From the NCBI GenBank assembly GCA_010093605.1, contig MU004182.1:445502-509501 (forward strand): a DNA stretch of 64,000 nucleotides, given 5' to 3'. Positions 17,663-58,387 of the stretch are shown in pieces (position 1 is the stretch's first letter; each line of letters begins with the position of its first letter). Source of the stretch: Lophium mytilinum (Eukaryota). The translations under genes were made by a program, and so were the position numbers. Under the pieces are notes generated by a model. The model had not been told where the DNA came from and made no database searches. It saw only the letters and a list, made by a program, of their open reading frames with translations.

Positions 17663-18574
17663 ATGGCCGCCTATATTGATTATCTCAAGGCCCTCCTCAG
17701 CCGCGCCGACGCCAATGGCACCCTACTTGCGGAGGGAGCCCATGGCATTCAGTCTCCTCCCAACGACGAACCCGCAACGGCGACGAAGGCGAGCAATCTT
17801 GCCCGCGAGAACCTCAAATCTCTGGAATCTCTCCTAGCAGAGAATGACCGCAGCCTTCCAGATCAAATCAGAGAGAAGCTGCTGCAACATTCCCGCGTGT
17901 CGACACTATCAGGTCGCGCTTTGAACCTGTTCAATCTGTTGATGGAGCATAAGACCGAAACCGTGTACACCACCATAGGCGCCGTCACCGCTAGTGTCTT
18001 AGGCTATCTGGTGGCCCAGTACGTGGCTCGACAGGCTGTGAAAGAAGAGGGCCAAGACCACGAAGTGGCCGGCTCGAGGCATCGCGTCGCCAAATCCCTC
18101 GAAGCCGGGTCCAAGACGGAAACTTTTGAACACGCGAAGGACCGTGAAGGTGGCGTCGCGGCCCTGAACAACGAGCTAGCCAAGCCGGGGAATGAGGTGA
18201 ACGATATCGAGGGTGGTAACGATGGTGCAGTTGCAGAAGCGGATACAGAGAATCATGTGGACTCGGGCTCACTGCTCAAGACCTGGGCGGAGAATTCGAG
18301 CGGCGCGAAGGACGAGGGAAAGCGTGAGGCTGCCGGAGACCACCAGACCGACGTCCGTTTGCCGACAATAACTATCAGCCCCGGACCTTCCAATACGCAG
18401 GAGCTCGAAGTAGTGGACAACAAGGTCTGCTTTGGCACTACGAATGCCAACCTTCCGCTCAATCAGACTATTGAGAGCGTTGATGGTGACTCCGGTGCGG
18501 ACATCTCTTCACTAGACTTGGACTGGGAGGTCATAGATGATGAGCACGAGGTTGGTTGGGTTGGGGAAGACTAG
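17663..18574 (+). CDS. Orphan single-TM family member A, with C-terminal AIM-like DWEVI
   Basis: Intronless, 303 aa. MAAYIDYLKALL..GIQSPP..LPDQIREKL aligns with B, C and D. Hydrophobic segment IGAVTASVLGYLVAQY, then an acidic tail. Confidence 0.8.
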   Translation: MAAYIDYLKALLSRADANGTLLAEGAHGIQSPPNDEPATATKASNLARENLKSLESLLAENDRSLPDQIREKLLQHSRVSTLSGRALNLFNLLMEHKTETVYTTIGAVTASVLGYLVAQYVARQAVKEEGQDHEVAGSRHRVAKSLEAGSKTETFEHAKDREGGVAALNNELAKPGNEVNDIEGGNDGAVAEADTENHVDSGSLLKTWAENSSGAKDEGKREAAGDHQTDVRLPTITISPGPSNTQELEVVDNKVCFGTTNANLPLNQTIESVDGDSGADISSLDLDWEVIDDEHEVGWVGED

Positions 18575-19750
18575 CGGAGGTTTTTGATCGAGCTGTTGGG
18601 GTCTCGATCGGGTGCCCGAGTTGGAGCAGTACTATGGCAGTCGAATATTCAGTAGGTTTGACGGGCCCCTCAAAATCTCTCTCTCGGCAGTGGAGGATGT
18701 CGATGGTCTTGAGCTCCTCATGTACCGGTATTCACTATATTCTAGAGGATATTGCCTGCGCAATGCCTTGTAACCAAGTTTTCCTGTAGTCATGGCCCTT
18801 TCTTACAGGCCCATATCATTGATTATTATCTTTCTCTTCACGAAAAGCTCTTGCAATGCTCGTGTATATCACCCGCCAAGATCGAACCGCGCTGGAAGCT
18901 CGGTTAAGTCGCGTCGATCCAGGGTCTATTCTATTATAAGAGTGGTGAATGATAGTGAGACTATACAGTCAATTTAATTTTCGCAGCCCCCACCAATCTT
19001 AGGGACTGGAACATTTCGCTCGTGATATGCTGGTAGACGTACTGGCGGACTGATGATGTGGTTGCTTCTCTAAGGTATCCTTCCGGGGCGTCCAGGCTTT
19101 AGCCTGGAATCGGATTACGCTCCCTCCCTGAATGTCTAGGCCTAGCCTAGGTTCGAATCTTGCTCGGGTACTTCTTCTTTTCTACTTTTTGCTGCAATTC
19201 CGGCCTCGTACCGATCACGTAGTCGTGAAGCCTCCATGGTGTCACTAACACCTCTCTAGGACGTGTACCCACTCCGTATCTTTGCACGGGCGTGGCATCC
19301 GGGCCTTTCTCTTATTTGCGTGCGACTTCACGCGTCTCTTAACAGTGGCCTGTCGTCATGACCCATCGTTGGGAACTTTGCAAGTTCGGAGGTCTTCCTC
19401 TACGCTCCTTTCGGTCATAATCGCTAATTCTGTACCTCTCTGTAAAGAAATTCATATAGTGTTTAGTACTGGCCTCCTCTAAGCACTGTAAGTGTGAACC
19501 TGTTTGTTATTCCTCTGTTATTCTGATCAGGGTGAATGCTGTGCATACTTCAAACACGAAATATCCAACAGTACTCGATCCATTCACCAATGCCTATGCG
19601 TTGTGTCTATAAAACCTCGAAGTCCCGTCAACAGCTTCTCTTCCACGTAACACCTACAAATCAAAACCACCACCCACCACCTCGTTGCGAACCTTATTTA
19701 CAAGCAACAGAACAACAAATATTCACCTCAACCAAATACTCAAATTCACC

Positions 19751-20173
19751 ATGCCAGACGCCGACTCAGAGGATCTCTGGGTCCTCCTGGAGGCGGTTCT
19801 GCGCCAAGCCCTCCCTCAGCTCGGAGAGGATTTCAAGACGGCCTGTCCGACTACCACGTGGATCCTTAGCCTGATTATGGAGCACCCGGTGACGGCCGTG
19901 GCCCTGGCCGCAGGGGCACTGGCCATCGCGGCTGTGAGACCTCTAGTGATTTGGTGGACATCTCGAGAGCTAAAGGACACCGGTAGGGAAAAGCGTGCGC
20001 TCTTTAGAAAGGCGCGCGATGCAGACAGCCAGGCCGATCAGGAGAAGCTTCTGAAGCTTGAGGACATATTCAGTCAAGCCATTGATGAATATAACACCGG
20101 ACCGAAAGATGTTCTGCTTGGGAAGAAACATCGCGAGGGTATCGGCGCCACTTTAGCGAAGTGGATAGTCTGA
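19751..20173 (+). CDS. Orphan single-TM family member F (short; lacks the first ~50 aa and the AIM-like tail)
   Basis: 140 aa. EDLWVLLEAVLRQALP..C.TTTWILSLIMEH..AAGALAIA matches B (DELKILLEDVARNLP..CSTTGRVL), A (LLMEH) and D (TAGALAIT). TATAAAA at 19608. Confidence 0.65.
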   Translation: MPDADSEDLWVLLEAVLRQALPQLGEDFKTACPTTTWILSLIMEHPVTAVALAAGALAIAAVRPLVIWWTSRELKDTGREKRALFRKARDADSQADQEKLLKLEDIFSQAIDEYNTGPKDVLLGKKHREGIGATLAKWIV

Positions 20174-20920
20174 GAGTATCAATGACAGGGAACATAACAA
20201 GGTCTAGGACAGCGGCAACAGGGTATAGCTCCTGAATACCTCTTCGCTGATAACAATGGCATATCAAGCATATTGTTTCTGACAAGTGACGTGAGCGACT
20301 TTCCGTTCTGGCTTTACTTTTGCAGGGCTAATTGTACTAGGGCCTGGCATGGGCAGAGATGCGAGCTATCTTGGCTCGACTGATCTGGCACTTCGATATA
20401 GAACTCGATGAGAGCTCGTTGTATTAGGACCGCGAGAAGGTTTCGGCGTGTGAGAGACGTCGCGTTTGACAGTTAGACTCAAGCTGAGGGACTCCTGATT
20501 CTGAGTAGAGCAAGGCTCAGAAGGTAGAGGATATATCTCATCACGGTGACCAGCATATGACGGCTTGGAATGAGATTCATGGCCTGTGGTATATAATCAC
20601 TAACTAAGAATATGTACAGCCGAGAGCTAGCTTCGTGGCAAGTCGCATCTACAGCAATTCACAGCAGTGCACCTGGCAATCCTTGCATAATATATACAGA
20701 AGTTGCGTAAAATCACCTCCATGGATTCACCGCTGGCTTTTGGTGGCATATCAAGCCTATTTAAACCTCCCCTTCCTACAACTTACTCCTTTTCAACTCA
20801 AACACCCCACACCGCGCACCAACCACCACTTCGTCATCCACAGCAACCACCACTTCTTCATCTTCCACAGCATCCGCTAACATCACAACCCCAGCAAGCA
20901 CTTTCAGCTCCTCAATCAGT

Positions 20921-21661
20921 ATGGCTAATTGCATAATCTTCCTCAAGTCTCTCTTGACCCGCAGCGATGCCAATAATACCCTTTCCGCTGAAGTCTACAA
21001 CGGAATCAAGTGGTTGCCTAACGAAGAAGACTTCTACTGGCAGGTTTCTGCCAACAAGACCTGCGGCCTTTCGAAAGAAGCCCAAGACGAGCTGAAGATT
21101 CTGTTGGAAGATGTCGCGCGGAACCTTCCCAATCCTATCAAGAAGGAGTTGATGCAGGTTTGCACGTGCTCGACGACCGGTCGTGTCCTGTACTTCCTGA
21201 CAGGATCCAAGATGAGACTTGTTGGTACGGCTGTGGCAGTGGGACTAGCATATCTGGCTATAAAGTATGTGGTTCGGCATGGAAAGAAGATCCGCAAGGA
21301 GGAGCGGGAGATGTGCGAGATGAAGCTTGCTGAGTTGAAGCGCCAACTGGGAATCAATCTCAACGAAGAAGTCAATGAGCTCAAGGGGACTCTAGTCCAC
21401 GCTGAAGATCTCAAGGGAGCAGTTGCAGGATTGGCCAAGCAGAAAGATCTCGACAAGCTTCAGGATCGGGTCGATACCATCAATAGCGGTGTTGAAGGGG
21501 AACAACTCCAGCAATCTCCCAAGGTGATAGCCGTAGACATGGAGGAGGGAGTCACGGATGATCAGGAGGATGTCACTGCTGAATTCGATGGCGATTCCAA
21601 CGGGTCAATTATTTCTGAGTGGATCGAGCTCGATGAGGAGTTGTGGAAGGAGGCGAAGTAG
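20921..21661 (+). CDS. Orphan single-TM family member B, with C-terminal AIM-like EWIEL
   Basis: Intronless, 246 aa. MANCIIFLKSLL..GIKWLP..TCGLS..LPNPIKKEL..C, hydrophobic LVGTAVAVGLAYLAIKY, then KIRKEER and a coiled coil. Confidence 0.8.
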   Translation: MANCIIFLKSLLTRSDANNTLSAEVYNGIKWLPNEEDFYWQVSANKTCGLSKEAQDELKILLEDVARNLPNPIKKELMQVCTCSTTGRVLYFLTGSKMRLVGTAVAVGLAYLAIKYVVRHGKKIRKEEREMCEMKLAELKRQLGINLNEEVNELKGTLVHAEDLKGAVAGLAKQKDLDKLQDRVDTINSGVEGEQLQQSPKVIAVDMEEGVTDDQEDVTAEFDGDSNGSIISEWIELDEELWKEAK

Positions 21662-22501
21662 GCTGGCGGGACTCTGGAGTGAGTGGAGTGCTGTATCGAG
21701 ATAAGTCCCGTAGCCCTTCATGTGTTAGACGAGCTTTCTGCAGCATTGCGATGGCTTGGGGAGCTCGAGTGTAGTACACCAGCTAATGGAAGCTTCGCAG
21801 ACTATGTATCGTAAAGGGAGGTCATGGTTATCTCTACTTGATTCATGGTACTTTCTCGTGATGTCCTACTATGAACGCCGTTCTGCTTCACTTAGATTTC
21901 ACAGTGACGCAAAAGAACAGAGCAGTGTTGACTTCAAGTGAATGAGTGGCCACTGATTAAAGAGGGGAAGAAAGTGCGGTATTCGTTTTCGAGGGCGCTG
22001 ATTATACCTCGGGAACAAGCTAGAATACAAGCTGAAAAAACCTACTCGTGAAACAACTAGCGGTTTGTCTGAGAGCTCACTCGCAGAATTTCGCAGGCTT
22101 AATGGCCATCACATGCTCCTGTACCTACGATCACAAGCTTCGTGTACCAGGGTATAGTAGCTCGGCGAACCAATGTGTGAGTGTATCTGGAAACGTAGGC
22201 AGTCCTAGCTGTGCACCCTATTTGTCCGTGACCAAATCCAACGCGCACTATGGACAGAAGCGATCACGTCCACGACAGCTGCAATGGCCAAGAACATTTT
22301 AGATTTGGTCACATACGCGCGATATGGCGATAAAATGGCCCACCAAGCCAATTGTGTGATTGAACATCCGATCTACCGCGGAACTATCTTCATAACACTT
22401 TGCGTAGGTGCCGAGCCCGCCCTAATGAGTCTACCACTCTAGCGCTGGCGACGTACAGGATCTATAACAAAGAAACACGTCACAGTCAAGTCCGTGGCTG
22501 T

Positions 22502-24847
22502 CTAGGAGATTCCTGATATAATATCCTCCGCAATAAGCTCCGATAGGGCATCTGTTATTTATCAGCGAATGCATAATTAAATCTGACATGACGCGGAAGT
22601 GAAAGGAGTTGAGCTTACAAATAGTACTCATCGGATGCCCAGCAGGAAGGAGCGGAAAGATGCTCGTATCCACAACTCGCAGCCCTTCAACGCCATAGAC
22701 GCGTCCCCTCGTATCGACGACCGCATTTTTATCACCTTTCTTACCCATGGAGCCTAGAAAACCTCGCCATTAGCATTCTAAATAGTTCAGAGGAATTTCT
22801 TGAGAAATGCGTACATGTAGAGCTTGCATGATATCCGTTATCAGCCTTCTTCCTCACCCATTCGAGAATCTGCGCATCTGTGACAACATCTGGGCCGGGC
22901 TCAACCTCGCTGACCCATACGCCAGTCGCTCTGGCCAGCTCTCTGAGTCGCTTGATAGCGCCGACGATTAACTCCTCTTCGGCCTTTGTACTCATAGCAT
23001 TGACATCGACGATGGGTCGCTCGTGGGGATCAGCGCTACGAAGAGTGACGCTACCGCGGGAGAGGATCGTTTGCACAGCGACGGTGACGGACATGTAGTT
23101 GTTCGCAGCGGGTTTGTCGGGAGGATTAGAGCCAGGGGATAGGCCCAGATATTCGAGCTCGGGAAAGTCGTCGGAGAAGGTCGCGAGTGCTTCTTGTGTC
23201 TCTGGAGAGAGAGACGAGCGGTTGGGGAGTTTCTCCCATCCTATACGTGGGTCAGAGACTAAATCTAGCAGATGCAGTTGCATAAAGTAGGTTACCAATT
23301 ACACCCCCTCCCACACCAGTAAGAGGTCCAGTTTGTTCCGAAAGATAAGCCTCCACGGCCTCTGCATGAAGGGTCTCGTTGGTAGTCACGCCCGAGTTTG
23401 TGGTGACATTTGTTTCGTGGCTCGTGAAGATAAACAGATGGTCCTGAAGGGTGTGTTAAGTCGTTTTCTTGAAGAGAGAAGCGCTCGCGAATACATACCC
23501 ACATGTTCTTGCCGACTCCAGCAAGATCTGAAACAACGGGAATGCTGAAATTCGAAAGCGCGTCGGCTGGACCAATGCCCGAAAGTAAGAGAAGATGAGG
23601 AGAGTGAAACTGTTTTAGGTAAGCAAAGACCTACCAGGTGGGAGCGAGAGTAGTCTTACTACGCCCGAGGAAACGATGACCTCCTCCTTGGCCGAGATGG
23701 TGTACTCTGCACCGTTTGTTTCGACTAGCACACCCGTAGCCTTCTTCCCATCGAATACGATTTTCTTAGCGAGAGTTCTAAGGTATAGTTTGAGAGCTGT
23801 CTTATCAAGAGCCTCTTGCAGGAATGAAGCTTCCGAGGAGCTTCTGGTCTGGAATTCAGCATTGACTGCAAGCGTGCTTGGGGCATAGCCGTCCAGATGG
23901 CCACTGTTCAGTCCCTCGATTGGTTTAAAACCAGTCTTGGCGAATGCCTTTACCATGAATTGATCAAACGCTGGCCTAAAATTGGGGAAGGATGCTTCGA
24001 GTGGCCCTCCGGTCGGGCTATACATCTCGGGTTCATATGGTATGGAGACGTTAAGACCGATCTTTTCGAGGTTCGGAGGAGTGAACTTAACACTCTTCTT
24101 GAGGTATGGGAGGAACTTGTCCCACGTGAAAGACGAGTCGCCTACGAGATTGGACCACGTATCGTATGCGCCTTTGTTCGTTCGATGGAAGATCATGTCA
24201 TTGAGAGCAGAGCTGGGATCTTATTAGCTCTTGTGTAGAGCAGAGCTTATTTAGTCCACGCACCTCCCACCCAAAGTTTTTCCTGTAGAGGGATTAGCTT
24301 TCGCTCATTGGTGATGTCTCGTTCTCTGCTTACCTGCGGAATAATGTATTTGTCGTCCCCCAAAGCCCTAAATGAGAATGAGCACCGTATCTACCTCCCA
24401 CTTATCAAGTCGCCGCGGGCCAGCCACTCACCTTTTGCGGTTCAGTGATGATGCCCCAGTCCACTAACACCGGACTCGGTTCCAAGTCATTGAAACTCAG
24501 ATACTTGGCTCCGTACCCGGGAACTACGCTTGTGTTCCCATTGTCCAGCTCATAAAAGCTGCCCGCCTCGACTACTGCAACCGTGATGTTTGCACTCGAG
24601 GCAGCTAGTCGCGAAGCAGTTGCTAGCCCAGCTGTCCCACCGCCTACTACCTGCTTTCTTTGAGTAATTTGCGTCTGATTGTGAAAGAGAAGGTACGCAC
24701 TACGTAGTCGTATGTCGCGTTCTCGGCGAGGATGCCGAAGGAATTTCCAAATAGTCGTGTCCTGCCGTTCGTGTTGGTGGCGCCAAAGATTGCAGACGCT
24801 CCTGCGCACAAGCTAGATAAAGCGGTAAAAAGATGTGTCCAACGCAT
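22502..24847 (-). CDS. Secreted GMC oxidoreductase, AtC/PatE-like (multi-exon)
   Basis: Signal-peptide-like N-terminus, YDYV-VVGGGTAG FAD-binding motif, VEAG, EVIVSSG, YHASSTC, VVDTRGRVYGVEGLRVVDTSIFP and GHPMST. Several canonical introns; stop at 22502-22504. Confidence 0.9.
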
Positions 24848-26079
24848 GGTTCTTGTTACTCTCCCTTGAGGCTACTGAAAAGTAAAGACCTCATCACGAA
24901 TCGATCGATTTGCTGTTCTTATACGTCTGATCACTCAGTCGCGTCTTTCCGACTCGTTGTTGATTTCTCAGCGTCGTCATAATCCTCCAAAATTTTCTGA
25001 AAGATGTGGGGTCATGCAAGGAACCAAAGCCAGGCCTTGACCTTCACGCGCAAGTTCGCTTCGTTAGTTCAGTACCGCGAGGCCTGTATGGAGGACGGAG
25101 AAGCATATCTTACCCAGTACCGGGGACAGTGGGAGCTGCATGAACCCACGAGCTAGGAAACGAGCTCGGTTCCAGTCCGAGAGCTGTCTCGTTGCGGTGC
25201 GGTTGGAGCCCGTGCTGCTAACATGACGAAAGATGAGACGATACCACAACTACTCGAGATGCCAATTCCGACTTACCGGAGTGGTGCGAAACGCTCGATG
25301 AGGAAATGTTTGGTTCTGCCTAATTGGGAAAGGTGGCGCAACGATCAACGCGGGGATTCCGGAGATCATGGCTGCATGGTGTCAGGGTGTCTCGGGGACC
25401 GAATGGCGGGTACGTTACCACTAGGCCGACAAAATGCGAAGGGAAGAGAGGGATGAGAAACTGTTGGTTTTGAACGTTGGCGCCTTGCCGCGCTCGACAA
25501 TGTAGGAACTTTAAGGCTGTGAGAATGAATTTAATACTTTCACGTCCCGTCAGCACATTGAGGCTAATGCAGCGATATGAAGGGCAATGTGAAGGGCGTT
25601 TTCGAGTACTTCAGGCTTAGCGGCACTCATGAAGTAGTCTGGTGCATTCGAGGTTGTTTATTGGGTCGTGAGACAAGCTGTGGGGTGGCTTTTGAGAGAC
25701 GAAAAAGCAATTCGGACATTCATTGGATAAGCACCGACGCAAGTACTGAAATGTGGTGATTTCAACGCTGAAAGGAAATGAATCGGAATACATAATAATA
25801 ATACAGTGACAGGCCACAAGTTTAGGAACACTGGATCGACACTGTTTGGGGTCCCCCTATAGGATTTTGAAAACCTAAGGGTGATGTCGAGGTTCAAGCG
25901 GTACAGATTGGACTACCTCTGGATTAATGGTCTGCTCTGCAGCTAGGGTACCCCCGACAATGGTGTCAGGTGGGCAAATTGGAACCAAGCTGTAATGAGT
26001 CCGTGTGTCTAGACTTATAGCTTACTACTGTAACATAGTTCACTCATTGAAAATGTATTCTCACATTGACGTAGCTAGT

Positions 26080-26844: not shown

Positions 26845-27281
26845 TGCGGCGAGTCGTCGTCGTCGTCGAAGCGCAGGTGCAAATGCCTTCGAGAGAGCAG
26901 TATAATTTGCGATTCTTCGTGGGCGTCGACGCAAATACGAAGGTAGGGCAGAAGAAGTGATGAGACGGTCCCTGTAGCTGCGGTCGTTACTGAAGATATT
27001 AGCAAGGCGGATGGGTTATATCCATTGTGATGCTGGGAGCAGCAGTGTTGGGCAGGTAGGTAGAAGTGCGTCGAGAGAGGCGCAGCGGTTCGGACTTCCG
27101 GGCATCCTGGCGTGCCTAGCAACTCGTAGACATATACTGTAGGCGACTGGCACCAATGTCTCTTGCTTAGGAGAGCTGTGCCGCATTCTTGCAGGTTTAC
27201 GATGTCGAGAGGGTATGTTGGATTGGCGGTGCCGAAGGACGTGTTGGCCTCGCGGTGCGCCTCGCCTGCTCAGCACGCGGG

Positions 27282-27672: not shown

Positions 27673-27974
27673 TAGCGTTCTCAGCCCGGTCACGTGTCGC
27701 ATCGGACGTCAACCTAGGTAGTCCCATCGTAAAGCTCTCCTTTCACCCACCGCAGTCCTCACAGCCACCCAGCATCTCGCCCATTCGGTAGTAGCGGCGC
27801 CACCGCAATCTGATCCATTCCTTACGTACCAAGACCTACACATTACTAAGATTGCGCTTTCCTTCGTGCTATGCAATATTCAACATGTAGTACAAGGCCT
27901 ATCAAAAGGCTTTCCCAGTCGACCACACTCGAAACATATCCAAACCAACCCCCACCCTTCGTGGGACCTCAGAT

Positions 27975-32675: not shown

Positions 32676-33632
32676 CTAAGCTAATTTAGACTCCTTCCCC
32701 TCTGTATTCTCCACCAGCTCCCAATTAGAGGAGATATCCTCGGCCTTCAGTCTAGCTTCTCTCTTAGCCCTATAGGCTGCATCTGAGACCATCCAACCCT
32801 CGCTCTCTAGCCTGCCTTGGTCTTTCAGCCAATTGGAGAGAGGAATAAGGAGTTCGGGTATATCTTCCTTCATAGGGCATTCTCCCGTTGTTCCTTCATT
32901 TGCCTCCCCAGATTCAGGCCCAGGTTTTCCAGCGTGATCCGTCGCCACTGACGACTCCTCCTGTTCGACGGTACGTTCCGGCGTCTCGAGTGCTGCGCTC
33001 TCCGTTCTAGCCTTTGCGCTGTCCAAAGAGAGCCTCTTCACCTGCACCTCCTCGGTCTTCTCAGCAAAATCGGACAGAGTTTCAGGCCATTGGTAGGTCA
33101 GCTTCTCAAGCAGTTGGCCGTATCGTTCACGTTCCTTTACTCGGACATCTTTGACATGACGCACAAGCTGCCTATCGTACTTTTCTCGCTCCTCTGCTTG
33201 GACAATTCCGGAAAGTCGCGCAAGTTGTTGAAAGGACCACTCCCGCTCCTCCATTCGAACCTTCTCGACATAACGGTTGAAGTGTTGTACGGCTAAGTAT
33301 CCAACGACTGTCAGGCTGAGGGCGCCTGTCGTAGCGTAGGCGATGTGTTCTTTACGTGCGAAAAGGAAGGCGATAATCGTACTGAATGCTGACTTCTGAA
33401 AGGTGCAGTGCTTGGCTAATTGTCGTTGAATGTGGTCAGGAAGACGAGACAGATACTCGGTAAGGATCGTCTTCAGGTCTTGCTGCTTCTCTGCAGAGAG
33501 ATCACAGACTGTAGCACCATTGAAGAGGCTGCCACTAGGAAGCGACTTGATCCCGGCGGCGACTGCGGGTGGCAGCGCGTTCTCACCAGTGGCACCGAGG
33601 AGAGTCTTGAGATAGTCCACACAAGCGGCCAT
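32676..33632 (-). CDS. Orphan single-TM family member C, with C-terminal AIM-like NWELV
   Basis: Intronless, 318 aa. MAACVDYLKTLL..GIKSLP..VCDLS..LPDHIQRQL..C, hydrophobic TGALSLTVVGYLAVQH, then EKVRMEER. Confidence 0.8.
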   Translation of the reverse strand: MAACVDYLKTLLGATGENALPPAVAAGIKSLPSGSLFNGATVCDLSAEKQQDLKTILTEYLSRLPDHIQRQLAKHCTFQKSAFSTIIAFLFARKEHIAYATTGALSLTVVGYLAVQHFNRYVEKVRMEEREWSFQQLARLSGIVQAEEREKYDRQLVRHVKDVRVKERERYGQLLEKLTYQWPETLSDFAEKTEEVQVKRLSLDSAKARTESAALETPERTVEQEESSVATDHAGKPGPESGEANEGTTGECPMKEDIPELLIPLSNWLKDQGRLESEGWMVSDAAYRAKREARLKAEDISSNWELVENTEGKESKLA

Positions 33633-34463: not shown

Positions 34464-35144
34464 TCAAACCCCATTAACAGCTTCCACAATCTCCCACTCT
34501 CCGTCGGAAAGAAGCTCAGTTCTACGTCTCGAAGAAGAACCTTCGGTGCCAACAGTGGAGGAAGCATCATTGAAGAGAGGCCCTTTGGCCGCCGCTTTCA
34601 TACCTTCGTCGATATGTCCATCGGCCGTTGCATCCTCTTCAGTCTCCTTCACAATGCTCTCTGTAGCGTTAGCGTTCCTTCCTGCGTCTGATGCCACAAT
34701 GAAGTCCTCGCACTGCATCGATATGACGCTCTTGCTACCCTTCAACCATTTCTTGATTCGGCTAGAAACTGAACGGCCTTCCCCATCGTCTTTTCCAGTA
34801 GCCCCGTTCCATACCGCTTCGGTGCTCCGCTCGGATCGAGCCGGCTCATTCTCGCTCAACAAACCTGATAGGTGGGCCACTGTGTCTTGTAACGCTTGGT
34901 TCTGCGCCTTCATGGAAGCTTGAAGATCCCTGGACACGTCGACCAAAGACTGATTGAACGCCTGAGAATCAGCCAGCTTCTGTTCGTAGCCCTTGCGCAC
35001 CTCTCTCCGCATGCGCTCCATTGTTTGGTTCATATATTGCATAGCCGCGAATGCGATCAACGTGGTTACGAGTATGCCCGTAGCAAGGTAAGCCATAGCT
35101 GTCTTGTTGTCAAGGATGTCAAAGATGCTCTTGCAGCGAGCCAT
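34464..35144 (-). CDS. Orphan single-TM family member E (N-truncated), with C-terminal AIM-like EWEIV
   Basis: 226 aa from MARCKS. ATGILVTTLIAFAAMQY..ERMRRE..GYEQKL aligns with D (TAGALAITLIGYATVQY..EKVRKE..GYETQL). TATAAAA begins at 35328 on the minus strand. Confidence 0.7.
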   Translation of the reverse strand: MARCKSIFDILDNKTAMAYLATGILVTTLIAFAAMQYMNQTMERMRREVRKGYEQKLADSQAFNQSLVDVSRDLQASMKAQNQALQDTVAHLSGLLSENEPARSERSTEAVWNGATGKDDGEGRSVSSRIKKWLKGSKSVISMQCEDFIVASDAGRNANATESIVKETEEDATADGHIDEGMKAAAKGPLFNDASSTVGTEGSSSRRRTELLSDGEWEIVEAVNGV

Positions 35145-49730: not shown

Positions 49731-52700
49731 GACGACGGCGATGGTTGCTCGATTCAGAGGCACGGGAAGAGGCGGTAGTAGAGGTAGTGGCAGGTGGTGC
49801 GGTGGGGTTGTGGGGTGTGTCACAGGTTCTTTATTACGGCGTGAGGCACCAGGCGTGGGCGCGGCAGGGGGCTTGGCATCAGATTCAGCCCTTGCTGAGA
49901 GCAGACAGTGCACCACCACCACTACCCAGCCCGATACGAGTCGGGATCGCGATTCCCATGGACCAGGTGCTGCCATCAGAGCCGCCAATGTGCGGCCAGC
50001 AAAGAAGCCCGCCGCGACGCCCGCGAACCAGCCCCTGAGACAACACCAGCCTAAAGGAGTATCCCTAGCCTAATCGTAGCCACCGGCCTGTCAAGCTTTC
50101 TGGGGCGTCGGGAGGCGGGAACGTTACTAACGGGCCATCCCGTCCGCGAGACGGCTCCTCGATGGCGCCATCGGCCCTGCTGCATGCGCTACGGAACTGG
50201 CTAGCAACGTTGTCTGCCGGTCTCGCCGCTCGCGTGTAGCAGAATCGTAGAAATGGGACGCCAGCCCGGTTCTCTCCAGCTCGGCATGCCGCGCGAGGAT
50301 GGATTCGAGGCAGCAGTGGTGACGACCTGCCCTGTGCGACCATGGTGCCGTCTTCTGCAACAACAGCTGCATGGCACGTCCAGCGTACCGCGCATCCGCC
50401 TACGAATCAGGCCAAGTTCTCCTATGCACGTCAACCGAGCTGCACGATACGGGCTAGGATGTCCGATAAGTGCCATGGGTGGGGCGGTTCTCTTCCGCCC
50501 GAGGGAAACCTCCCCATAAAACACGAAATCTTCGCTTATAGTGCCGTACAAACGTCTCGAAAAGCATCAATTAGCTCGCTTTGTCTTACAGCCTGAGTTA
50601 TCTCTTGGCCTCTGTTCGAAACCGGCAATTGCATTCGGCCCAAGAAAGTTGCACAGCTTTTCATCGCTCCAGACATCGGTTCAACACGAGCATGATACAG
50701 AGTCTGAACGTAAGTGGTTCAGCATTGTCGTCTCTTAGCCACAACCATCACCACGAAAGATTGAAAAACACATGTATTCTTTCTGCGCGGTTTCTCCCGG
50801 CATGGCGGAACTTGGCCGCTGCGAACTGCACTCGCAGTGCCGATCCCGTTTCAGACCCAATGGCATTCTGGGAGTGACGCAGAATCCCACACGAATCCCA
50901 CGCGAAATTGTTCTCAGGCTCGGGCCGAACGCCGACCGTTTCAATCCTTCCCGCCAACGGCCGGCAGTGGCGTGCAGGTGGCAAGTCGGCCATGCCATTT
51001 CTGACTTCCGGTGAACCCGCGCCAAACTCTAGCTACACAGCACCTAGCTACATCTAGCATCTATCATTGAAAGCCGACTGTCCGCTAGACAGTCGTCGAT
51101 ACTAAGTATCCGCGGATCGAGGTCTACATTCCTGAGAACGAGAGCGCGGGACAAGGATTCGACTACTATCAACATTACTCCCTCGGCAAAGAAGCTTTAA
51201 AAATGAAGTACCACGTGGCACGCCCCTGTATTGGCTAAGCTAAATATGTATAGCTCTCAAAATTCGTACGAGTCCACCGTACGACACGCAGCACTTTGCA
51301 TGCTTCAAAACCGAAGATCCAACCCTCTATGAACCTCTCCCACATGGCAACACTCCGCCATGACGTAGGCGGCGCACGCAGGTGTCTTGCAAAACCCCGG
51401 GATCACGCTATATTAGAACGTTTTAACCAAAGGCGTACGTCCCAATGTCTCACATTCGCATCATAGCTAATCTATATGTGCTGTCTTATCAGCTCTAGAT
51501 GTAAGGTCCCCGAACTCGGGTCTTGCGCTGTACGTAATAATGGGAGATTTTATTATTTTCCAAAACTGGGTCCCATACCTACTCACTTACCTAACGGCCA
51601 AGGAATACACGACAGCGACTGGTGTTCCATCCTCTCTCAACGTGGAAATGGTCATGATATCAGCCATCTCGAAGAGTTGCTAGCTTTTTAGCCGATGTGC
51701 AGATACTTCACAGCTTCTTTCGTTTTCACCGTCCTCATTACTCACATATGGTGTAAGCCTCATTCGCACACACTGCCTTCTTAGGAATAGCCATGATAGG
51801 ATGCCACTAGATCCATCCTTTAGAGCTGGATGCACGCTTCGGACGCTGACGTATCAATTCTAGGAAGACGCGACTTGCGGAGCGTCGAGTCGAAAACAGT
51901 CGACACCAATTCGGCTCTAAGCTTCTGCTCTGGTCATCTCGAATCTTGCCTCTGGCTTAGAGATCAATGGCCGGCAATAAAAGCGCAAGGAAGAGTTGTT
52001 GGTTATCGAGAGCACGAGCCGGCAAGAACACGAGGTTGATGCGTGGCTAGATGGCGCTAGAGGAGCCATTCCCATACTCTCGGGTATCCAAAGCTCCACT
52101 TAATCACGTCTAGTGTTCCAGTACGAAGTACCCTGTGGACTTTCACATGCTTCAAAAAATATGTCGCCATCTGCCTTGCTCCCAGATTTCAGTCCCGGCT
52201 TCAAAAGCGTATCTGACTTTATGGAAGACTAAACATAGTCCTGGGCCTCCTTAACCTACGTACCTCACCGAGTTTTCGAACGTTTAAGCGACATCATACA
52301 ACCCAAGTGTACCCTCCACTGTTTCGTACTCGCATTCCCCCTAGCTACTCTCTCCAAGACCCATTCGTCCGCCTACCTAGATAACGCGGCCAAGATGCAC
52401 CTGCACAAATCAGCTCACTTTCCCTCCGCCACTTCTCTCAAAATCTATCACCAAGCCGACTCCCCTCTAGCTTACAGCCTAAGCTTAAGCGAAATGATCT
52501 GGAATAGGAATGTGCTTACACGCGCCCATGGCTATCTCAAACTCCGATCCGCCAACTCAGATCTCCCATATTCCACAGTACACCAAGGCATACCCTCGAC
52601 GGAAAGAACGGACACGCAGAGCAGCCGTATTACGCCCGTGGGATTACGGCCGTCATGAGCTTACGTGATAACCCTTTTTTCCAATCAACTGAGGATGGTT

Positions 52701-53185: not shown

Positions 53186-55351
53186 TCAAGTAATCCAATT
53201 ATCACAATTGACATCATCGAGAAAAAGATCCCAGTCCATCCAAGGCGAAGGGTCAGTGAAGTGACCCAGACTGTCCAAGGCAGCGACAAGATCTTTGTCC
53301 TCGAAGGGCCCAGGATATAAGTTCTGGTCGACGTGTGGAAGTTCGCCGGGTTGCAAGACCTCACCCATTGACCCCTCGGGCTTTATCGGAAAGTCTGACG
53401 GGAAATCTGACACCGCACTCGTCTGGACGGACGTATTCTCTAAGGCATAACTCGTGGGAATTTCGGCAGTCTTGTATCGATTATGAAGAACCATTCGAGT
53501 CTTCTTCATCAGCTTCACAATCGGCCTCCACAGCATGCCTGTGTACGCATCGGCTATTTGCTGGGAGTATTGCTCGAACGCGCTCTCCGCGGCAGTCCAA
53601 GCTCGACCAACACTTGGGTGGTCCGGCTGGGTGCATATCTCCGCCAGGACAACGGCAAGAGCGTACCATGGCACCCAGATAAACCAGGCCCAAGGAAACA
53701 ACGCCGGGGATCGATTTGTGAAAAGCGAGCGCTCGACGACTCCAGTTGCCGCAATCAAAACATCAAAGTCATCATCCGGCGGGGGTCTTGAGTCTTGCGG
53801 AGCGCGATGCATTGGTCGATAGAGCAGCACTCTCATCGACGCAGCAACATGCGATGCGGTCATTGTGGCGTTGATATGGAGGGGATCAGATTCGCCGCAA
53901 TATCTGACGACGCGCTCTTGCATCTCCCTTTCGAATTGCGTGAGAACATCAAGTCGGTCTTGCCAGGTTTGGAGGCTATCGCGCGATTGACTCCCACGGC
54001 TCGTGAAATCGTATCCGAGTCGGCGGTAGTTGACCATGGCTAGATGCGTTACTAGAGAGGGCGACATGTCTGTGAAACCGCCGGATGTCGTTGATAAACC
54101 TGCCAATTCGGCGTCGTTGACGTAGGCAGGCGGTCTGTCGAATTCCTCGGGGCGGAGCAACGGTACAGAGCCTCGATCTAGAGAGGTTTGTATGTCTAAA
54201 AGGCCAATACAATACCACAGTCTGCGCTTCGATTCCTTCTCCAAGGGCGACGAACGCGGGTCTTCGACAGAAGGAATCCCTTGGCCATTTGCGAGACGAA
54301 TTGCTAGAGCTACAAGAGCCCAAGTAGTGGACCGATTGGTACGAGTACGAAGCGCTACCTATACGATGGCTTGTAATTAGCGATTGCGACATGTTGTAGC
54401 TCAGGCGAGCAAGATGGAAAGGCGCTAGAATGTCGGAAAGGGTATTCGCCTTACGAGGTATATCACAAAAGCTTGCAAGACAACGTGGTCTCTGCTCGTG
54501 ATAAGGTCAACACGTGAGAAAGCAGCCTCAGCAGCCGTCTGAAAGTGTTTATTCAGCGATTCTTTTCCTTGGCGTAGTATTTGCATCGACTCCGCTTCAG
54601 ACAAGGTGCACAAGGCGGCGAAATAGATGGCATATTCCAAAGCCTCGACGCTCAGAGACACTGGCCGTGATGGGTCTGAGTACTTCTCGGTCACTGCAGC
54701 ACACATTGTTGGCCAGTGGCCGACCTTGAATATCATATCAACTCGAAACTTGAATATGGCGAGCAATTTGTCTCTCAAATCTTGAGGAGGTGGCTGCAAG
54801 TCCCGGTTGGGTGTACCTTCCGACAGGCTCGTAAAGAAAACTGCGTTCGCGTGAAAACTGTGGCCGGGTGACGGTTCGCTGGTGGTGTTTTGGCTTTCCG
54901 GGGACTCGCCTTCGTCGTCGGACGGCTCTTCCAAAACATCGCGTAGTCCCGTGACCTGCAGATGAGTTGATCAGCTCGGCTAGCTCTCATGACAATGGAG
55001 TTATGTCAATACCTCTGCAGCAAGGCCTGCCCAGAAGTCCGGCGCGACAAACCTCTTCGCATTGACAGCTATAGTTGGATCTTCAAGGGTATTTCTCGAG
55101 GAGGTTAGAACCTCAGAACCAGACTCTTGCTTTGGGGACGATGCGGTTGCTTCTAGCTGTCGCACCATGTCCTCCAATCGCAGGATTCTGTTATTGAGAG
55201 CATCTTTCCGTGGTCGACGCTTGCGCTTGTGCTGAACAGCGGTGCATTCGAGTTTTGTCTTTTGGCACGGACCACAAGGCAACGTCTTATCGCACTTGAC
55301 CTTGCGTTGTCGGCATTGTTCGCAGCTCAGCTTCGTTGTAGGGGGAGCCAT
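53186..55351 (-). CDS. Second Zn(II)2Cys6 fungal transcription factor (3 exons)
   Basis: SCEQCRQRKVKCDKTLPCGPCQKTKLEC, VLQAFVIYL, RRLWYCIGLLD and WAWFIWVPWYALAVVLAE. Confidence 0.9.
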
Positions 55352-56668
55352 CACACGTGAGATAGGTATAGAGGATCTACCTTTCGGGAGAAGATAAGAT
55401 GAAGATGAAGGTGTCGAAGCGGTCAAATTCGTGGTGACGTTGACATAAGCCCAGTGCACTAGGGGCTAGATCGGTGCCTATAATTAGCGGAAAACTTTAA
55501 ATGACCCTGCCGTCTCAGATAAGACTAGTTCTCGATATTGATCTCTTGTTTGGATGAGGCAGGCATTTGCAGTGGGATGTTCTGATTGTGCTGTTGCGAT
55601 TTAATCCGAAGACGGAGAGTAAGAGCCTTTAAGAAGATCACATTCATTGAAACATCAGCGGCCAAGGCAAGAAGCGATGATTCGTTGCGCCCTACGGAGT
55701 ACTAGAGAAGTGCAATAGTGTTCTGGTCCGGTCCTGGAGTTCTGTGTTAATAACCAGGCCATTGCTCAGCAGCCAAGGTGATGACTCAGTGAGCGGGCCT
55801 AGCCCTACGGTGCCTGACGAGAGGATCAGTCCACTTTCTAGGGCACGCGAGTCCAGGTCTAGTCACGAAATTCTCACCATTAGACTCTGTCTCTTTTTAG
55901 ACTATGCGAGCTCCTCTATAATAGTGGTAGCCTTGCATTTAAACTCCACAGTGCCATGCACAGGCACAGATGTAGTACCTTGATCATCTAAAGGGGAATA
56001 GTATAGGCCGAATCAGGTAAGAGGCGCTTCTGACTACAAATCTACCTGCCCACAATCCTCTATACTACACCAGCTTCGACAAGACCTTTATCACAACCAA
56101 GGCATCGTTAGAAGCAGTTCTAATCACTAATCCAGCATACTTGAACATCAAGAACGGACAATTACTGGAATACGAGCATCCAACCAATCAGAAGCCGAAG
56201 ATTGCGGACTTCCGAGAGGGGAAAACCTCCCGAACTCGGAACCTCAACACTGTACTATTCGGCCTTTCGTTGTGATAGAATACATTCTACGAAATCAAGG
56301 GCCATGAGCTCCAGTGTCTGGTTTAAAAAGTTGAGCATCAGTGAAAGCCAAGAGAAGGTCGCCGGGTAGTCGAGTACAAGCCATCAATGAACGCCAGCTT
56401 CTCGGCAACTATAGCTAGGATCCCTGCTCTAGTAGAACAGACTGGGTTTTTGAGGTACGCAGCTCTTCTCAAAAGAGATGATCGTGATGATCTTGAAAAA
56501 CTAGTGGGGACAGGGACAGGGAGATATTATTCATGTCGGTTCATTGGCTACAACTAGCTACCATACCCTTAACTCGTGTATGCAGGTTATAAGAATGCAA
56601 TATATCTCCAAAACAATAGAAAGCCGCGACAGAAAACAACATCCACGGCTCTCCCAATTGTAGTGTGC

Positions 56669-58387
56669 CTACTGGTCAAATACGGCGCCCTCCCAACCTT
56701 CTGACTCTGCTGTATTCAGCTCATCCCACTCAGACAAAATATTCGATTCGGCGGTCTTGTCGTTAGAAGAGTTTTGAGTATCAGCTGAAGGTAGCTCGAC
56801 CGGGTCCCACTCCGAAGAAACAGACTTGGGAGACTCATTGCTGTCCTCAATGATGTTCGGGCATGGAGCTGAAGCCGCGTCGGCAAGTGCTACTTCGAGT
56901 TCGACCTCCCGTTTCAGAGCTTCATTTTTATTTTCATTTCCATGAAGCAGTGCCAATTCTGCATCGGTCCACGTGGCATGATCTTCAGTCGTCTTTGCTT
57001 CAGGGAAATCGTGTAGGGACTCGGCCATATCCTCAACAGTCGATAAATCCCCCTCAGGGCCTTCGGTGTCTCCAACAGCCTGTTCAATCACCACCTTGAT
57101 AGCGGCGAGAATGGGGTCAACTTTCGACGGGTTGTTATGGATCAGGGCCTGCTCAAGCAAGGCCTGAGAGATGAAGCGCAGTGCAGTGCGAACATCATTG
57201 GTATTCACAACTTCCTCGTGATACTTCCTTAGATGATCTGACTCGGCCTTGAAAATCATCTCCGAGAATTTCTTCTTGATCTGCACCAAGACGTAGTCAT
57301 GATGCTCCCGGTCGGCCGTGCAAACGTCAAACAGAGAGCGGATCTTAGGAGCCTGGTCGGAAATCCAACTGCTAACATTTTCGGTGGTCGTATTGCCATC
57401 CAGGAAAGCAGCGTTTTGTGGAAGCGTGTCAACCAGCCTGTCTGCAGCTGTATGGTGTTCATCAGCTGCCGCAGAGCTGGACTCCGAGCCCTCTATCATC
57501 TCATCTTTCTTGGGATTCAAATTCTCGGACTCATACTTGGAAGATCCAGGTTTTGGGATCTGCGCTTTTTCTTCGCCCTCGTCATCGCTTTCCTCGGCAA
57601 TCCGGGTCATCACTTTCGTAATGATGGCCTCAAGCTCGTCTGCTTGCACCAGCGTTTGCTGCCTTTTTGCCAGACCCTCGACAAGCGTTACAATTCTCCC
57701 TAGAAGATTCGTTTGCACATTCTCATCTTCAGCTCCCTCGATTCTAGCCTTGACCAACTCTAAAATCTGCGCTTTAGTGCTCTCCCTATCCTTCTCCAAT
57801 TCATCGACTCGCATGTCCGTAGCTTTCTTTGCGGCGTTGAGTTCTCCGATCTGAGTGATCAGCTCATCTCGAGCTTCTTCAACTTTCCGATCGAGAGACT
57901 CAGTGAAGCGGCGTTCGAGGGCAGCAAGCTTGACGTGGTACACGGCTTGTTTTTCCAGGAGTTGGGTCTCGTAGCCAGCTGTTTCCTTCGCGAGGAACGC
58001 CCGCTCCTCCTTCCGAACCTTCTCAATGTGTTTCATCGCGTACTGGACCGTGGCATATCCGATCAGAGTAATGGCCAGTGCACCTGCAGTGATACTGGCT
58101 ACATTAGACGGCTTGTATTCGATGAGGAACTTAAGAACACCGGTGGGCTTCTTGCACTGGCAGTATACTTGAAGCTCGTTCTTGATCCGGTCGGGTAGGG
58201 CATAGCTATGATCCGCAAGGATTGCTTTTATATGTTGTTGAACCTCTTGGGGGAGGTCGCACGTTGCAGCGGTGTATAGGGAACTGCCGGTAGGAAGGAA
58301 TTTGATGGCAGTGGTGAATGATTTCGGCAGTACACGTTTGTCCTGGCTATTGATAAGAGTCTTTAGGTACTCAAAGCACGACGCCAT
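56669..58387 (-). CDS. Orphan single-TM family member D (longest), with two AIM-like motifs EWDPV and EWDEL
   Basis: 572 aa from MASCFEYLKTLI..AIKFLP..TCDLP..LPDRIKNEL..C. Hydrophobic segment, EKVRKEER, long coiled coil and acidic tail. Confidence 0.8.
   Translation of the reverse strand: MASCFEYLKTLINSQDKRVLPKSFTTAIKFLPTGSSLYTAATCDLPQEVQQHIKAILADHSYALPDRIKNELQVYCQCKKPTGVLKFLIEYKPSNVASITAGALAITLIGYATVQYAMKHIEKVRKEERAFLAKETAGYETQLLEKQAVYHVKLAALERRFTESLDRKVEEARDELITQIGELNAAKKATDMRVDELEKDRESTKAQILELVKARIEGAEDENVQTNLLGRIVTLVEGLAKRQQTLVQADELEAIITKVMTRIAEESDDEGEEKAQIPKPGSSKYESENLNPKKDEMIEGSESSSAAADEHHTAADRLVDTLPQNAAFLDGNTTTENVSSWISDQAPKIRSLFDVCTADREHHDYVLVQIKKKFSEMIFKAESDHLRKYHEEVVNTNDVRTALRFISQALLEQALIHNNPSKVDPILAAIKVVIEQAVGDTEGPEGDLSTVEDMAESLHDFPEAKTTEDHATWTDAELALLHGNENKNEALKREVELEVALADAASAPCPNIIEDSNESPKSVSSEWDPVELPSADTQNSSNDKTAESNILSEWDELNTAESEGWEGAVFDQ

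Follow-up and report, generated by a model that had tools for sequence, protein, structure and literature searches.

The window, a stretch of 64,000 nucleotides of Lophium mytilinum DNA, contains six open reading frames (A, F, B, C, E and D in order of position), which were taken in a preliminary description, made from the letters alone, for an old local expansion of intronless orphan genes. The questions raised by this locus are whether the six frames are genes of a single family, how fast this family evolves, and what its products could do in the cell.

Six protein-coding genes

The positions and strands of all six frames in the preliminary description were right, and every frame is open, with lengths of 140–572 aa. 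Gene A (17663..18574, plus strand; 303 aa), identical to the deposited protein P0006, is composed of an N-module without Cys (17663-17959), a predicted transmembrane (TM) segment (17960-18016) and an acidic tail (net charge -25). Gene F (19751..20173, plus strand; 140 aa; deposited as P0007) carries half an N-module, a predicted TM segment (19895-19951) and, behind it, a short tail of basic character (net +2) that ends in W-I-V-stop, and nothing recognisable was found beyond its stop codon. Gene B (20921..21661, plus strand; 246 aa), identical to the deposited P0004, includes an N-module with four Cys (20921-21217), a predicted TM segment (21218-21274), the sequence KIRKEER and an acidic tail (net charge -14). 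Gene C (32676..33632, minus strand; 318 aa), identical to the deposited P0001, includes an N-module with three Cys (33345-33632), a predicted TM segment (33288-33344), KVRMEER, a predicted long charged helix and an acidic tail (net -11). Gene E (34464..35144, minus strand), with a predicted TM segment at 35040-35096 and a tail of net charge -8, is deposited in the form of 226 aa starting from the ATG at 35144, and not in the form of 298 aa from an upstream ATG. Gene D (56669..58387, minus strand; 572 aa; deposited as P0128) includes an N-module with four Cys (58103-58387), a predicted TM segment (58046-58102), KVRKEER, a predicted long helical region and an acidic tail (net -46). Gene C is flanked by an MFS transporter gene and gene E, within a polyketide gene cluster that contains two copies of the family.

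The description as intronless holds for all six genes, each of which corresponds to a deposited single-exon protein model. An RNA contig (run X1; 17075..18840, plus strand) spans the whole of gene A without splicing and carries a poly(A) loose end after 18840; its 5' part runs into the upstream gene across a GT..AG intron (17017-17074), with the 5' loose end mapping to 16987-17016. Gene A is thus transcribed and polyadenylated, and it is the only gene for which RNA support was obtained. In each of the six genes, frame 0 alone shows coding-like codon usage. Based on the RNA contig over gene A, the deposited models and the codon usage, the six genes are real protein-coding genes.

A family sharing an N-terminal module

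Genes A to D are clear paralogues by BLASTP (E 3.7e-11 to 2.1e-30; 22-37% identity over 135-273 columns), with alignments always starting at residue 1, and the common N-terminal module, which had been aligned by eye, is borne out. A total of nine proteins were treated as the family, the six from the window and three relatives from Mytilinidion resinicola (P0002, P0003 and P0005). Among the seven proteins with the N-module, M1, L8, K9, L20, L45, L57, L64, P65, I68 and L88 are invariant, and genes B, C and D carry the sequence K-[VI]-R-x-E-E-R described beforehand.

Two genes had been listed as N-truncated members. This is correct for gene E, which begins with M-A-R-C followed directly by the pre-TM helix and lacks about 85 aa of the N-module in comparison with its M. 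resinicola counterpart P0003; its BLASTP match (E 1.9e-7 to C and 2.8e-7 to D) covers the TM segment and the basic block only, and it was detected by the HMM at E 1.6e-7 over model positions 90-141. The membership of gene F is marginal, with BLASTP E-values of 0.02 to A, 0.89 to D and 1.4 to E, none to B or C, and an HMM E-value of 4.7e-4 over model positions 52-136 in a search of 1340 six-frame open reading frames, in which the next, unrelated frame scored E 2.2. The same search revealed no seventh copy in the window. The expansion is local as proposed, all six copies in the window being confined to 41 kb, and the M. resinicola trio carries near-consecutive accessions.

Narrow distribution and rapid divergence

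When 1.84 billion representatives were scanned exhaustively with phmmer, only five proteins were detected, two from the window and three encoded by neighbouring genes of M. resinicola, so that detection of the family is confined to two closely related species. No member (0/9) reached the Pfam gathering score (best E 0.0086), and no relative was found in the PDB by profile search (best E 0.9), by Foldseek (0 matches at E<=0.001; best 0.7) or by VIA-align over 48161 chains (best Z 5.8, none at Z>=8); the ESM Atlas gave no usable feature hit (TM by query <=0.40). The family thus stays as unrecognised as it was on first reading.

The orthologous pairs are only 46–61% identical, against 94% for the neighbouring phosphatase, in agreement with the rapid divergence noted before: A and P0005 (303 and 308 aa) share 46% identity, and D and P0002 (572 and 568 aa) share 60-61%, including a D-specific conserved middle (aa 321-440) of 60-80% identity. 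The family is therefore lineage-restricted and very fast-evolving. The age attributed to it, however, finds no support as worded, since the two species in which the family was detected share 94% identity in a neighbouring housekeeping protein; from this distribution, the family is young or its evolution is too rapid to be followed back. That the genes are still under selection gains indirect support from the open frames, the codon usage, the retention of three lineages (A, D and E) in both species, the transcription of A, the conserved motif described below, and the excess of pS (0.69-0.80) over pN (0.40-0.49) in the N-module for all six pairs, with synonymous sites saturated among the paralogues.

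Predicted architecture and orientation

The earlier claim of a single TM segment agrees with the finding of one hydrophobic segment in each of the nine proteins (mean of the best 19-aa Kyte-Doolittle window 1.44-2.15). A full member is predicted to consist of an all-helical N-module of about 95 aa, one moderately hydrophobic TM helix, a juxtamembrane basic patch (K-[VI]-R-x-E-E-R) that extends into a long helix of high charge, and a largely disordered tail of 128-458 aa, which is net-acidic in all seven proteins with an intact tail (net charge -8 to -53). Cys residues of the N-module are retained or lost together.

The number of K+R residues on the C-terminal flank of the TM segment is at least that on the N-terminal flank in all nine proteins, higher in eight and equal in A. 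From this bias a cytosolic tail is favoured, and the N-module would probably face the lumen or the outside. No signal peptide was found in the family, and a folded N-domain of 95 aa is long for an N-out signal anchor and awkward to translocate.

The structure models are of low confidence (pLDDT 58.7 and 69.5). In the AlphaFold2 model of C, residues 97-215 form one continuous helix, and tail residues 216-282 and 298-308 are at pLDDT <50. The coiled coil in the label given to the family would be a candidate fold: in a crude heptad test of eight proteins, 12-169 of the 300 shuffles scored at least as high as the real sequence, and given the EKRDQ content of 35-47%, a charged single alpha-helix is equally possible.

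A conserved tryptophan motif near the C-terminus

The middle regions had been described as not aligning by eye. The tails are indeed otherwise unalignable, but short conserved tryptophan motifs had been missed. A motif of the type S-[END]-W-[ED]-x-[LIV], newly found here, closes all seven intact tails (A, B, C, D, E, P0002 and P0005), 6-15 residues before the C-terminus. It is SLDLD-W-EVI in A (18506..18535, plus strand; W288, 12 aa from the C-terminus), followed by GW-x-G (W299); IISE-W-IEL in B (21602..21631, plus strand; W234, 9 aa from the C-terminus); DISSN-W-ELV in C (32712..32741, minus strand; W304, 11 aa from the C-terminus), where a short strand of low confidence appears in the AlphaFold2 model; and LLSDGE-W-EIV in E (34485..34514, minus strand; W217, 6 aa from the C-terminus). 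Two copies, VSSE-W-DPV (W527) and ILSE-W-DEL (W554, 15 aa from the C-terminus), are located in D (56717..56827, minus strand), with EG-W-EG (W565) downstream of this range; a second copy is also present in P0002, to which the last 12 residues of D are 92% identical. The complete motif is absent from gene F.

After the TM segment, W-x-x-[LIV] occurs six times in five of the window proteins, in every case as the acidic terminal motif. The distance of the motif from the TM segment is 116-440 residues. When the tails were shuffled, each yielded such a motif among its final 25 residues in 329-750 out of 20000 trials (1.6-3.8%). The motif persists across five paralogue lineages, with an aliphatic residue at +3 in all nine instances from seven proteins. 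Two further W-centred motifs are present in the tails, the order of the three varying between paralogues, and a second acidic W follows the first by 8-11 residues in A, B, D, P0002 and P0005. An S-x-x-[DE] arrangement, the type of the CK2 consensus, lies beside the motif W in most members.

The published AIM/LIR core reads [W/F/Y]-x-x-[L/I/V], preceded by acidic residues at positions -1 to -4, and the FIR follows the consensus [DEST][DEST][FWYILV]-x-x-[ILV] (PMC7615515). The AIM/LIR core with upstream acidic or phosphorylatable residues is matched in 7/7 intact tails and 9/9 instances, and by its sequence the terminal motif fits the binding consensus for both Atg8 (AIM/LIR) and Atg11/FIP200 (FIR). 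The pattern W-x-x-[LIV] is short, and many of its matches in a proteome are not functional AIMs.

Possible function of the family

As the best explanation, to be held tentatively and at somewhat less than even chances, the family is predicted to be a lineage-specific, membrane-anchored adaptor for Atg8/Atg11. The TM segment would fix the protein to an organelle, the charged helix and the acidic tail would provide the spacing, and in the cytosol the terminal motif would function as AIM/LIR, possibly also as an Atg11/FIP200-claw motif; phosphorylation of the serines just ahead of the tryptophan could regulate it. The motif would then hook the organelle membrane to the forming autophagosome in the manner of an organellophagy receptor. 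The two extra W-centred motifs, which this reading leaves unexplained, the incomplete motif of F and the equal flank charges of A speak against it.

Five or six copies and an evolution many times faster than that of the neighbour are not accounted for by autophagy alone, and families of the conflict type show such multi-copy, fast-evolving behaviour. A doubtful extension of the adaptor model is a previously unknown receptor family in which the motif is fixed and the luminal N-modules and spacers diversify at many times the rate of ordinary genes, the local array reflecting rapid diversification of cargo or compartment. If so, the copies in the polyketide cluster might aid the turnover of biosynthetic compartments.

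Acidic W motifs also serve kinesin light chain, COPI delta-COP, AP appendages and Arp2/3 activators, and the anchored proteins could instead dock another machine (a coat or adaptor appendage, tether, motor or contact-site partner) for trafficking or organelle positioning. The three W-centred motifs of variable order and the closely spaced second acidic W would be in line with this alternative. It is nevertheless judged unlikely, because the aliphatic residue at +3, kept without exception, is the hallmark of the second LIR pocket and is to our knowledge not required by the other classes of acidic W motif, and because the residue at -2 is mostly S, unlike the L/M at this position in the kinesin-light-chain motif.

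A role in conflict (allorecognition, killer/antidote or antiviral defence), for which fast turnover of sequence and changes in copy number would be the very purpose, with the anchor and tail used for self/non-self recognition or control of toxicity, would agree with the divergence of the orthologues relative to the phosphatase and with a tandem array in two species that includes the truncated derivatives E and F. Such a role is improbable in view of the lack of Pfam similarity to known incompatibility, killer or defence families, the pN below pS in the N-module, the one-to-one presence of three lineages in both species, and the terminal motif, of which the conservation argues for one common, conserved partner.

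The orientation could also be the opposite one, that of a type II surface or luminal protein with a cytosolic N-module and a luminal or extracellular tail, in which case the W motif would be unrelated to cytosolic Atg8 and the AIM reading would fail. The lack of a signal peptide, the difficulty of translocating the N-domain, the equal flanks of A and the N-terminal M-A-x-C, conserved even in the truncated E with a Cys that could be acylated in the cytosol, are on its side. This orientation is nonetheless quite improbable: it runs against the flank charges of eight of the nine proteins; the tail is rich in E/D/K/R, helical and then disordered, whereas glycosylated ectodomains are usually S/T/P-rich; and N-module Cys residues kept or lost as a set would fit disulphides in an oxidising compartment.

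Least probable of all are young, decaying orphan genes of little or no function with motifs left over from recent ancestry, as the narrow distribution, the fast divergence, the truncation of E and F and RNA support obtained for A only could suggest, because all copies keep open frames (226-572 codons) with lengths similar across species, frame-specific codon usage and pN<pS, and because retention of the motif in a tail diverged beyond alignment is the opposite of neutral decay.

Comparison with known systems

Organellophagy receptors combine a membrane tether, a net-negative cytosolic disordered region and an LIR, and an LIR 10 residues from the membrane fails while one at 28 works, according to Rudinskiy et al. 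(2025; PMC12431859). The family members with an intact tail resemble this design in the predicted anchor, the net-negative tail and the candidate LIR, the distance of which from the membrane is well beyond the 28 residues sufficient in that study, but differ in that some of the sequence behind the TM segment is predicted to form a long helix and is not all disordered; a common function would be inferred from this likeness.

TEX264, the mammalian ER-phagy receptor, is described in a review (PMC9346472) as having a single TM, a cytoplasmic C-terminal LIR, a long disordered spacer and CK2-phosphorylated LIR serines. The likeness lies in the single TM near the N-terminus, the long spacer and the C-terminal motif in an acidic serine context. 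In TEX264, a gyrase-inhibitor-like domain lies in the cytosol and next to nothing in the lumen, whereas the family has the N-module of about 95 aa before the TM segment and the charged helix after it. The family does not belong with TEX264, as indicated by the absence of Pfam matches at the cut-off in all nine members and of any detected relation in sequence or fold, and by the single long helix modelled after the TM segment of C.

No homologues of Atg39 and Atg40 are found in S. pombe, as stated in the same review (PMC9346472), and the known yeast receptors are poorly conserved, so that a lineage-specific receptor is not implausible. These receptors for nucleophagy and ER-phagy resemble the family in being membrane-embedded with an AIM in a cytoplasmic tail and in being poorly conserved between fungi; the AIM of Atg40 is in the C-terminal tail, and Atg39 is single-spanning with a non-cytosolic domain across the membrane. 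Atg39 differs in its opposite orientation, with AIM and Atg11-binding sequence both N-terminal, and Atg40 in having two hydrophobic segments, one of them reticulon-like, against the single 19-aa segment here; no sequence similarity of the family to Atg39 or Atg40 was detected. With one hydrophobic segment of about 19 aa and no Pfam match, the proteins are also distinct from the receptors with a reticulon-homology domain (Atg40, FAM134 and RTN3L).

Lineage-specific orphan families of filamentous fungi are likewise clustered, uncharacterised paralogues without homologues outside a narrow clade. The family described here differs from them in that its fast-diverging paralogues retain an architecture and short linear motifs, and the conservation of both points to a testable partner.

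Members and distribution of the family

By reading from ATG to stop with the standard code, all six ORFs of the preliminary description were found exactly where it had placed them: gene A (17663-18574, +, 303 aa), gene F (19751-20173, +, 140 aa), gene B (20921-21661, +, 246 aa), gene C (32676-33632, -, 318 aa), gene E (34464-35144, -, 226 aa counted from the second in-frame ATG), and gene D (56669-58387, -, 572 aa). Judged by sequence, A to D are homologous beyond doubt, as had been claimed from their common N-terminal module: pairwise BLASTP gave E values of 3.7e-11 to 2.1e-30 at 22-37% identity with all alignments beginning at residue 1, and ten positions (M1, L8, K9, L20, L45, L57, L64, P65, I68, and L88) are invariant across the seven proteins whose module is complete. 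The sequence K-[VI]-R-x-E-E-R noted after the hydrophobic segment is present in B, C, and D.

A family HMM made from the first 150 residues of A to D was run on 1340 six-frame ORFs (30 aa or longer) of the window. It returned A to D at E values of 2e-61 to 4e-70, E at 1.6e-7 (model positions 90-141 only), and F at 4.7e-4 (model positions 52-136), and the best ORF outside the six stood at E 2.2; E is therefore a solid member, F, the other of the two described as N-truncated, is a marginal one, and no seventh copy exists among these ORFs. Upstream of E and of F, the six-frame HMM scan detected no remnant of the N-terminal module in any other frame, and no remnant of a lost tail was seen past the stop codon of F. 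Protein E starts with M-A-R-C and then aligns straight onto the helix preceding the transmembrane segment (TM), and its counterpart P0003 carries a complete N-terminal module, so that E is a derivative by internal deletion rather than a fragment.

A phmmer search with D against 1.84 billion representative proteins gave five matches at E <= 0.001, namely C and B of the window and three proteins of Mytilinidion resinicola, all annotated as uncharacterised: P0002 (KAF2814515, 568 aa, the counterpart of D, 60-61% identical), P0005 (KAF2814520, 308 aa, the counterpart of A), and P0003 (KAF2814517, 158 aa, the counterpart of E). In these protein collections, through which copies elsewhere in the genome were also judged, the family is restricted to two species. 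A word-index search with C found C alone and its family-profile version found A, C, and F among 8000 candidates scored; this search is lossy, missed known relatives, and has no bearing on absence. None of nine members matched Pfam at the gathering score, a PDB profile scan gave nothing (best E 0.9), and the ESM Atlas gave no usable feature match, with all structural rows below TM 0.5. Neither the accessions nor the locus tags of the M. resinicola proteins are mentioned in the literature searched. The family, unrecognised in the preliminary description, is thus without a confident match to any characterised family in Pfam, PDB-profile, Foldseek, VIA-align (see below for both structural searches), or ESM Atlas.

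The terminal tryptophan motif

All seven intact tails close with a common short motif located 6-15 residues from the C-terminus: LDLD-W-EVI in A, LDSE-W-EVI in P0005, IISE-W-IEL in B, ISSN-W-ELV in C, ILSE-W-DEL in D, ISSD-W-DEL in P0002, and SDGE-W-EIV in E. A second copy is located 27 residues upstream in D and P0002. Downstream of the TM, W-x-x-[LIV] in the proteins of the window is always this terminal motif (six occurrences in five proteins); in shuffled tails such a motif fell within the last 25 residues in 1.6-3.8% (20000 trials each). The motif is kept in five paralogue lineages and the rest of the tails is not alignable; the middle regions, described earlier as not aligning by eye, hold conserved short W motifs that the preliminary description had missed. 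Between D and P0002 the last 12 residues are 92% identical, compared with 30-45% in the blocks spanning 441-500 and 40% in that of 541-560. Protein F ends W-I-V-stop without the full motif, and the 158-aa model of P0003 ends ahead of the tail.

Two further W-centred motifs, [KSN]-W-[LIAM]-x-[DEG] in mid-tail and one of the E-x-[GD]-W-x-G type, are present; whether they precede or follow the terminal motif varies among the paralogues, and no explanation is offered here. These motifs occur in the tails at W208 and W299 of A, W268 and W280 of C, W341 and W565 of D, W133 of E, and W242 of B.

As set out in PMC7615515, the core Atg8-binding motif (LIR/AIM) is [W/F/Y]-x-x-[L/I/V] preceded by acidic residues at positions -1 to -4, and the motif bound by the FIP200/Atg11 claw (FIR) is [DEST][DEST][FWYILV]-x-x-[ILV]. 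The terminal motif fits both alike. Against the consensus sequences of FFAT, the clathrin box, the kinesin-light-chain W-acidic motif, COPI W-x-W, and the Arp2/3 acidic-W motif, AIM and FIR were ranked above all the others, because they require the invariant aliphatic residue at +3, which the others are not known to need. This consensus fit suggests Atg8 or Atg11 as the putative partner of the motif, and autophagy as the putative process. From the fit together with the receptor-like architecture, we tentatively propose, as the best of the possible readings although short of probable, that the family proteins may be membrane-anchored Atg8/Atg11 adaptors. That the W motifs dock another cytosolic machine is a less likely alternative.

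Rate of divergence

The exon of the neighbouring Dcr2-like metallophosphatase (12089-13108, -), used as a yardstick, shares 94% identity with KAF2814524, its orthologue in M. resinicola, and 75% with that of the best other named species. Over the whole length, D and P0002 are 60% and A and P0005 46% identical, and the description of the family as rapidly diverging is therefore well supported. The N-terminal module (about 95 aa) is not spared: per 20-residue block, its identity to the orthologue is 65-75% for D and 45-85% for A. Such a rate would be in keeping with a family driven by genetic conflict, as would the array and its truncated copies; we regard this reading as distinctly unlikely and behind both the proposed adaptors and another cytosolic partner of the W motifs.

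Sequence comparison indicates that three lineages were already separate when these two very close species diverged, and the family is undetectable anywhere else, which does not bear out the word "old" used of this expansion. Among the paralogues pN of the N-terminal module (0.40-0.49) was below pS (0.69-0.80) in all six pairs, with synonymous sites saturated; the dN/dS check suggested in the preliminary description gave ratios for two pairs (0.35 and 0.38, both unreliable), the other four being saturated. These values are compatible with long-term constraint on the module and are not a measure of it.

The N-terminal module and predicted membrane topology

Residues 1-97 of D, modelled from a seven-row alignment, formed a small all-helical domain (pLDDT 69.5, pTM 0.52). 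Foldseek of this model against PDB found no meaningful relative (best E 0.7), and VIA-align against 48161 chains gave none at Z >= 8; the best Z of 5.8 falls, for this predicted model, in the range of generic helical bundles. B, D, and P0003 retain cysteines near positions 4, 43, 76, and 78, to which P0002 adds one more; C has three, and all are missing together in A and P0005. This set of three to five, held in B, C, D, P0002, and P0003 and lost in the A lineage, points to either a disulphide network or a metal site, lost as a unit.

The hydrophobic segment is one stretch of 19 residues in which G, A, and T abound (KD mean 1.44-2.15). Within 15 residues of it, K+R are more abundant on the C-terminal side in eight of nine proteins and equal in A; by the positive-inside rule a cytosolic C-terminus is therefore favoured, and this predicted topology has moderate support. 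The opposite orientation, with an extracellular or luminal tail, would fit the even charge of A and runs against the bias of the other eight; it is improbable, slightly more so than genetic conflict.

A model of the whole of C (pLDDT 58.7) has essentially one long helix at residues 97-215, with disorder after it, and E, K, R, D, and Q make up 35-47% of the 120 residues after the TM. The term "coiled-coil" was not confirmed: in a crude heptad test the observed score was equalled by 12-169 of 300 shuffles, and a predicted homodimer of C residues 92-216 scored 0.01 against a mark of 0.32, which is evidence neither way. A single charged helix is no less possible than a coiled coil.

Gene status and transcription

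All six ORFs are identical letter for letter, with identical boundaries, to deposited proteins of public collections (C, P0001; B, P0004; A, P0006; F, P0007; D, P0128; E, P0129), and the public annotation therefore also treats all six as single-exon genes. The frame of E is open upstream to an ATG at 35360 (34464-35360, -) and, stop to stop, to 35645; this upstream part is of low complexity, rich in proline and histidine, and resembles the C/A-rich leaders of other members. The longer 298-aa reading is not among the deposited proteins of these collections. Measured against the recognisable genes of the window, codon usage was +0.14 to +0.24 bits per codon in frame 0 and negative in both other frames for all six ORFs, and GC3 was 0.55-0.63 against a GC of 0.47-0.48 in the surrounding intergenic DNA. 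The frame retention, this frame-specific codon usage, and the motif islands in the tails disfavour near-neutral young orphans, the least probable explanation.

Contigs of sequencing run X1 over 17000-36500 contain 13 short GT..AG or CT..AC joints in genes adjoining family members, and X1 is therefore RNA. One contig spans 17075-18840 without a joint and has a poly(A) loose end at 18840, 266 bases past the stop codon of A; gene A is transcribed, with its coding region unspliced. The same contig runs on upstream through a 58-base GT..AG intron (17017-17074) into the preceding gene (about 15.5-17.2 kb, +), extending 1448 nt upstream, and represents either overlapping transcripts or read-through into A, so that it does not give the transcript start of A and its depth is not assignable to A. 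The suggested check by RNA showed transcription of A; no X1 contig covers F, B, C, or E within 17000-36500, which is not evidence of silence, and D lies outside that stretch. No promoter words common to the upstream regions of the six genes were found beyond random-window controls.

Neighbouring genes

A secondary-metabolite cluster (22368-49976) is interleaved with the family. It includes a GMC oxidoreductase (22741-24196, -), a DUF6593 protein (26080-26844, -), an FAD monooxygenase (27975-29470, -), an MFS-like transporter (30139-31721, +), a P450 (35862-37381, -), a partially reducing PKS (KS-AT-DH-KR-ACP; 41676-46637, +), and a fungal transcription factor (47110-49976, -); C and E are placed between the transporter and the P450. 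The X1 contigs show splicing and expression of the GMC, monooxygenase, and transporter genes at low depth, and of the DUF6593 gene at high depth. Other long ORFs, for which Pfam gave no match, are located at 1303-2922 (-, 539 aa), 53186-54067 (-, 293 aa), and 58619-59239 (+, 206 aa, divergent beside D).

The order of the M. resinicola accessions, ending in 515 (the counterpart of D), 517 (of E), 520 (of A), and 524 (phosphatase), is collinear with the window and leaves room for one and two gene models between family members, against at least five and at least seven here. Judged by accession numbering alone, the polyketide cluster genes are probably absent from the M. resinicola locus, by insertion here or loss there.

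Comparison with known receptors

The original observation of this family was confirmed and sharpened, and its interpretation found support in part. Fungi commonly carry orphan families, and selective-autophagy receptors, evolving fast and defined by short motifs, are hard to find by homology. To our knowledge, filamentous fungi have few known receptors of the membrane-anchored type, and a literature search for fungal transmembrane receptors with Atg8 motifs showed no such family in the titles or abstract openings of its closest matches. Should the tails prove to bind Atg8 or Atg11, the family would be a new group of receptors that evolved independently, and its paralogue series (full, N-deleted, and motif-less) would be natural for dissecting the role of each module; if not, it is a clean case of orphan genes in which architecture and short motifs persist amid extreme sequence divergence, useful for studying constraint on young genes. 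The conserved terminal motif turns an unrecognised family into a cheap and decisive experiment, and the finding is a modest, testable lead rather than a demonstrated new system.

An organellophagy receptor, as outlined in PMC12431859, combines a membrane tether, a net-negative disordered cytosolic region, and a LIR far from the bilayer. The family is alike in its predicted membrane anchor, in its tails with a net charge of -8 to -53, and in the distance of 116-440 residues between TM and motif. The closest layout among those described is that of TEX264, which has a single TM, a long spacer, and a C-terminal LIR on the cytoplasmic side with serines that CK2 phosphorylates (PMC9346472); the likeness is of design only, homology and the defining domain being absent. 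The family is likewise not homologous to Atg39 and Atg40 and is without their defining domains, having the design alone in common. Provided that the motif is read correctly, these would be non-homologous proteins with the layout of a receptor.
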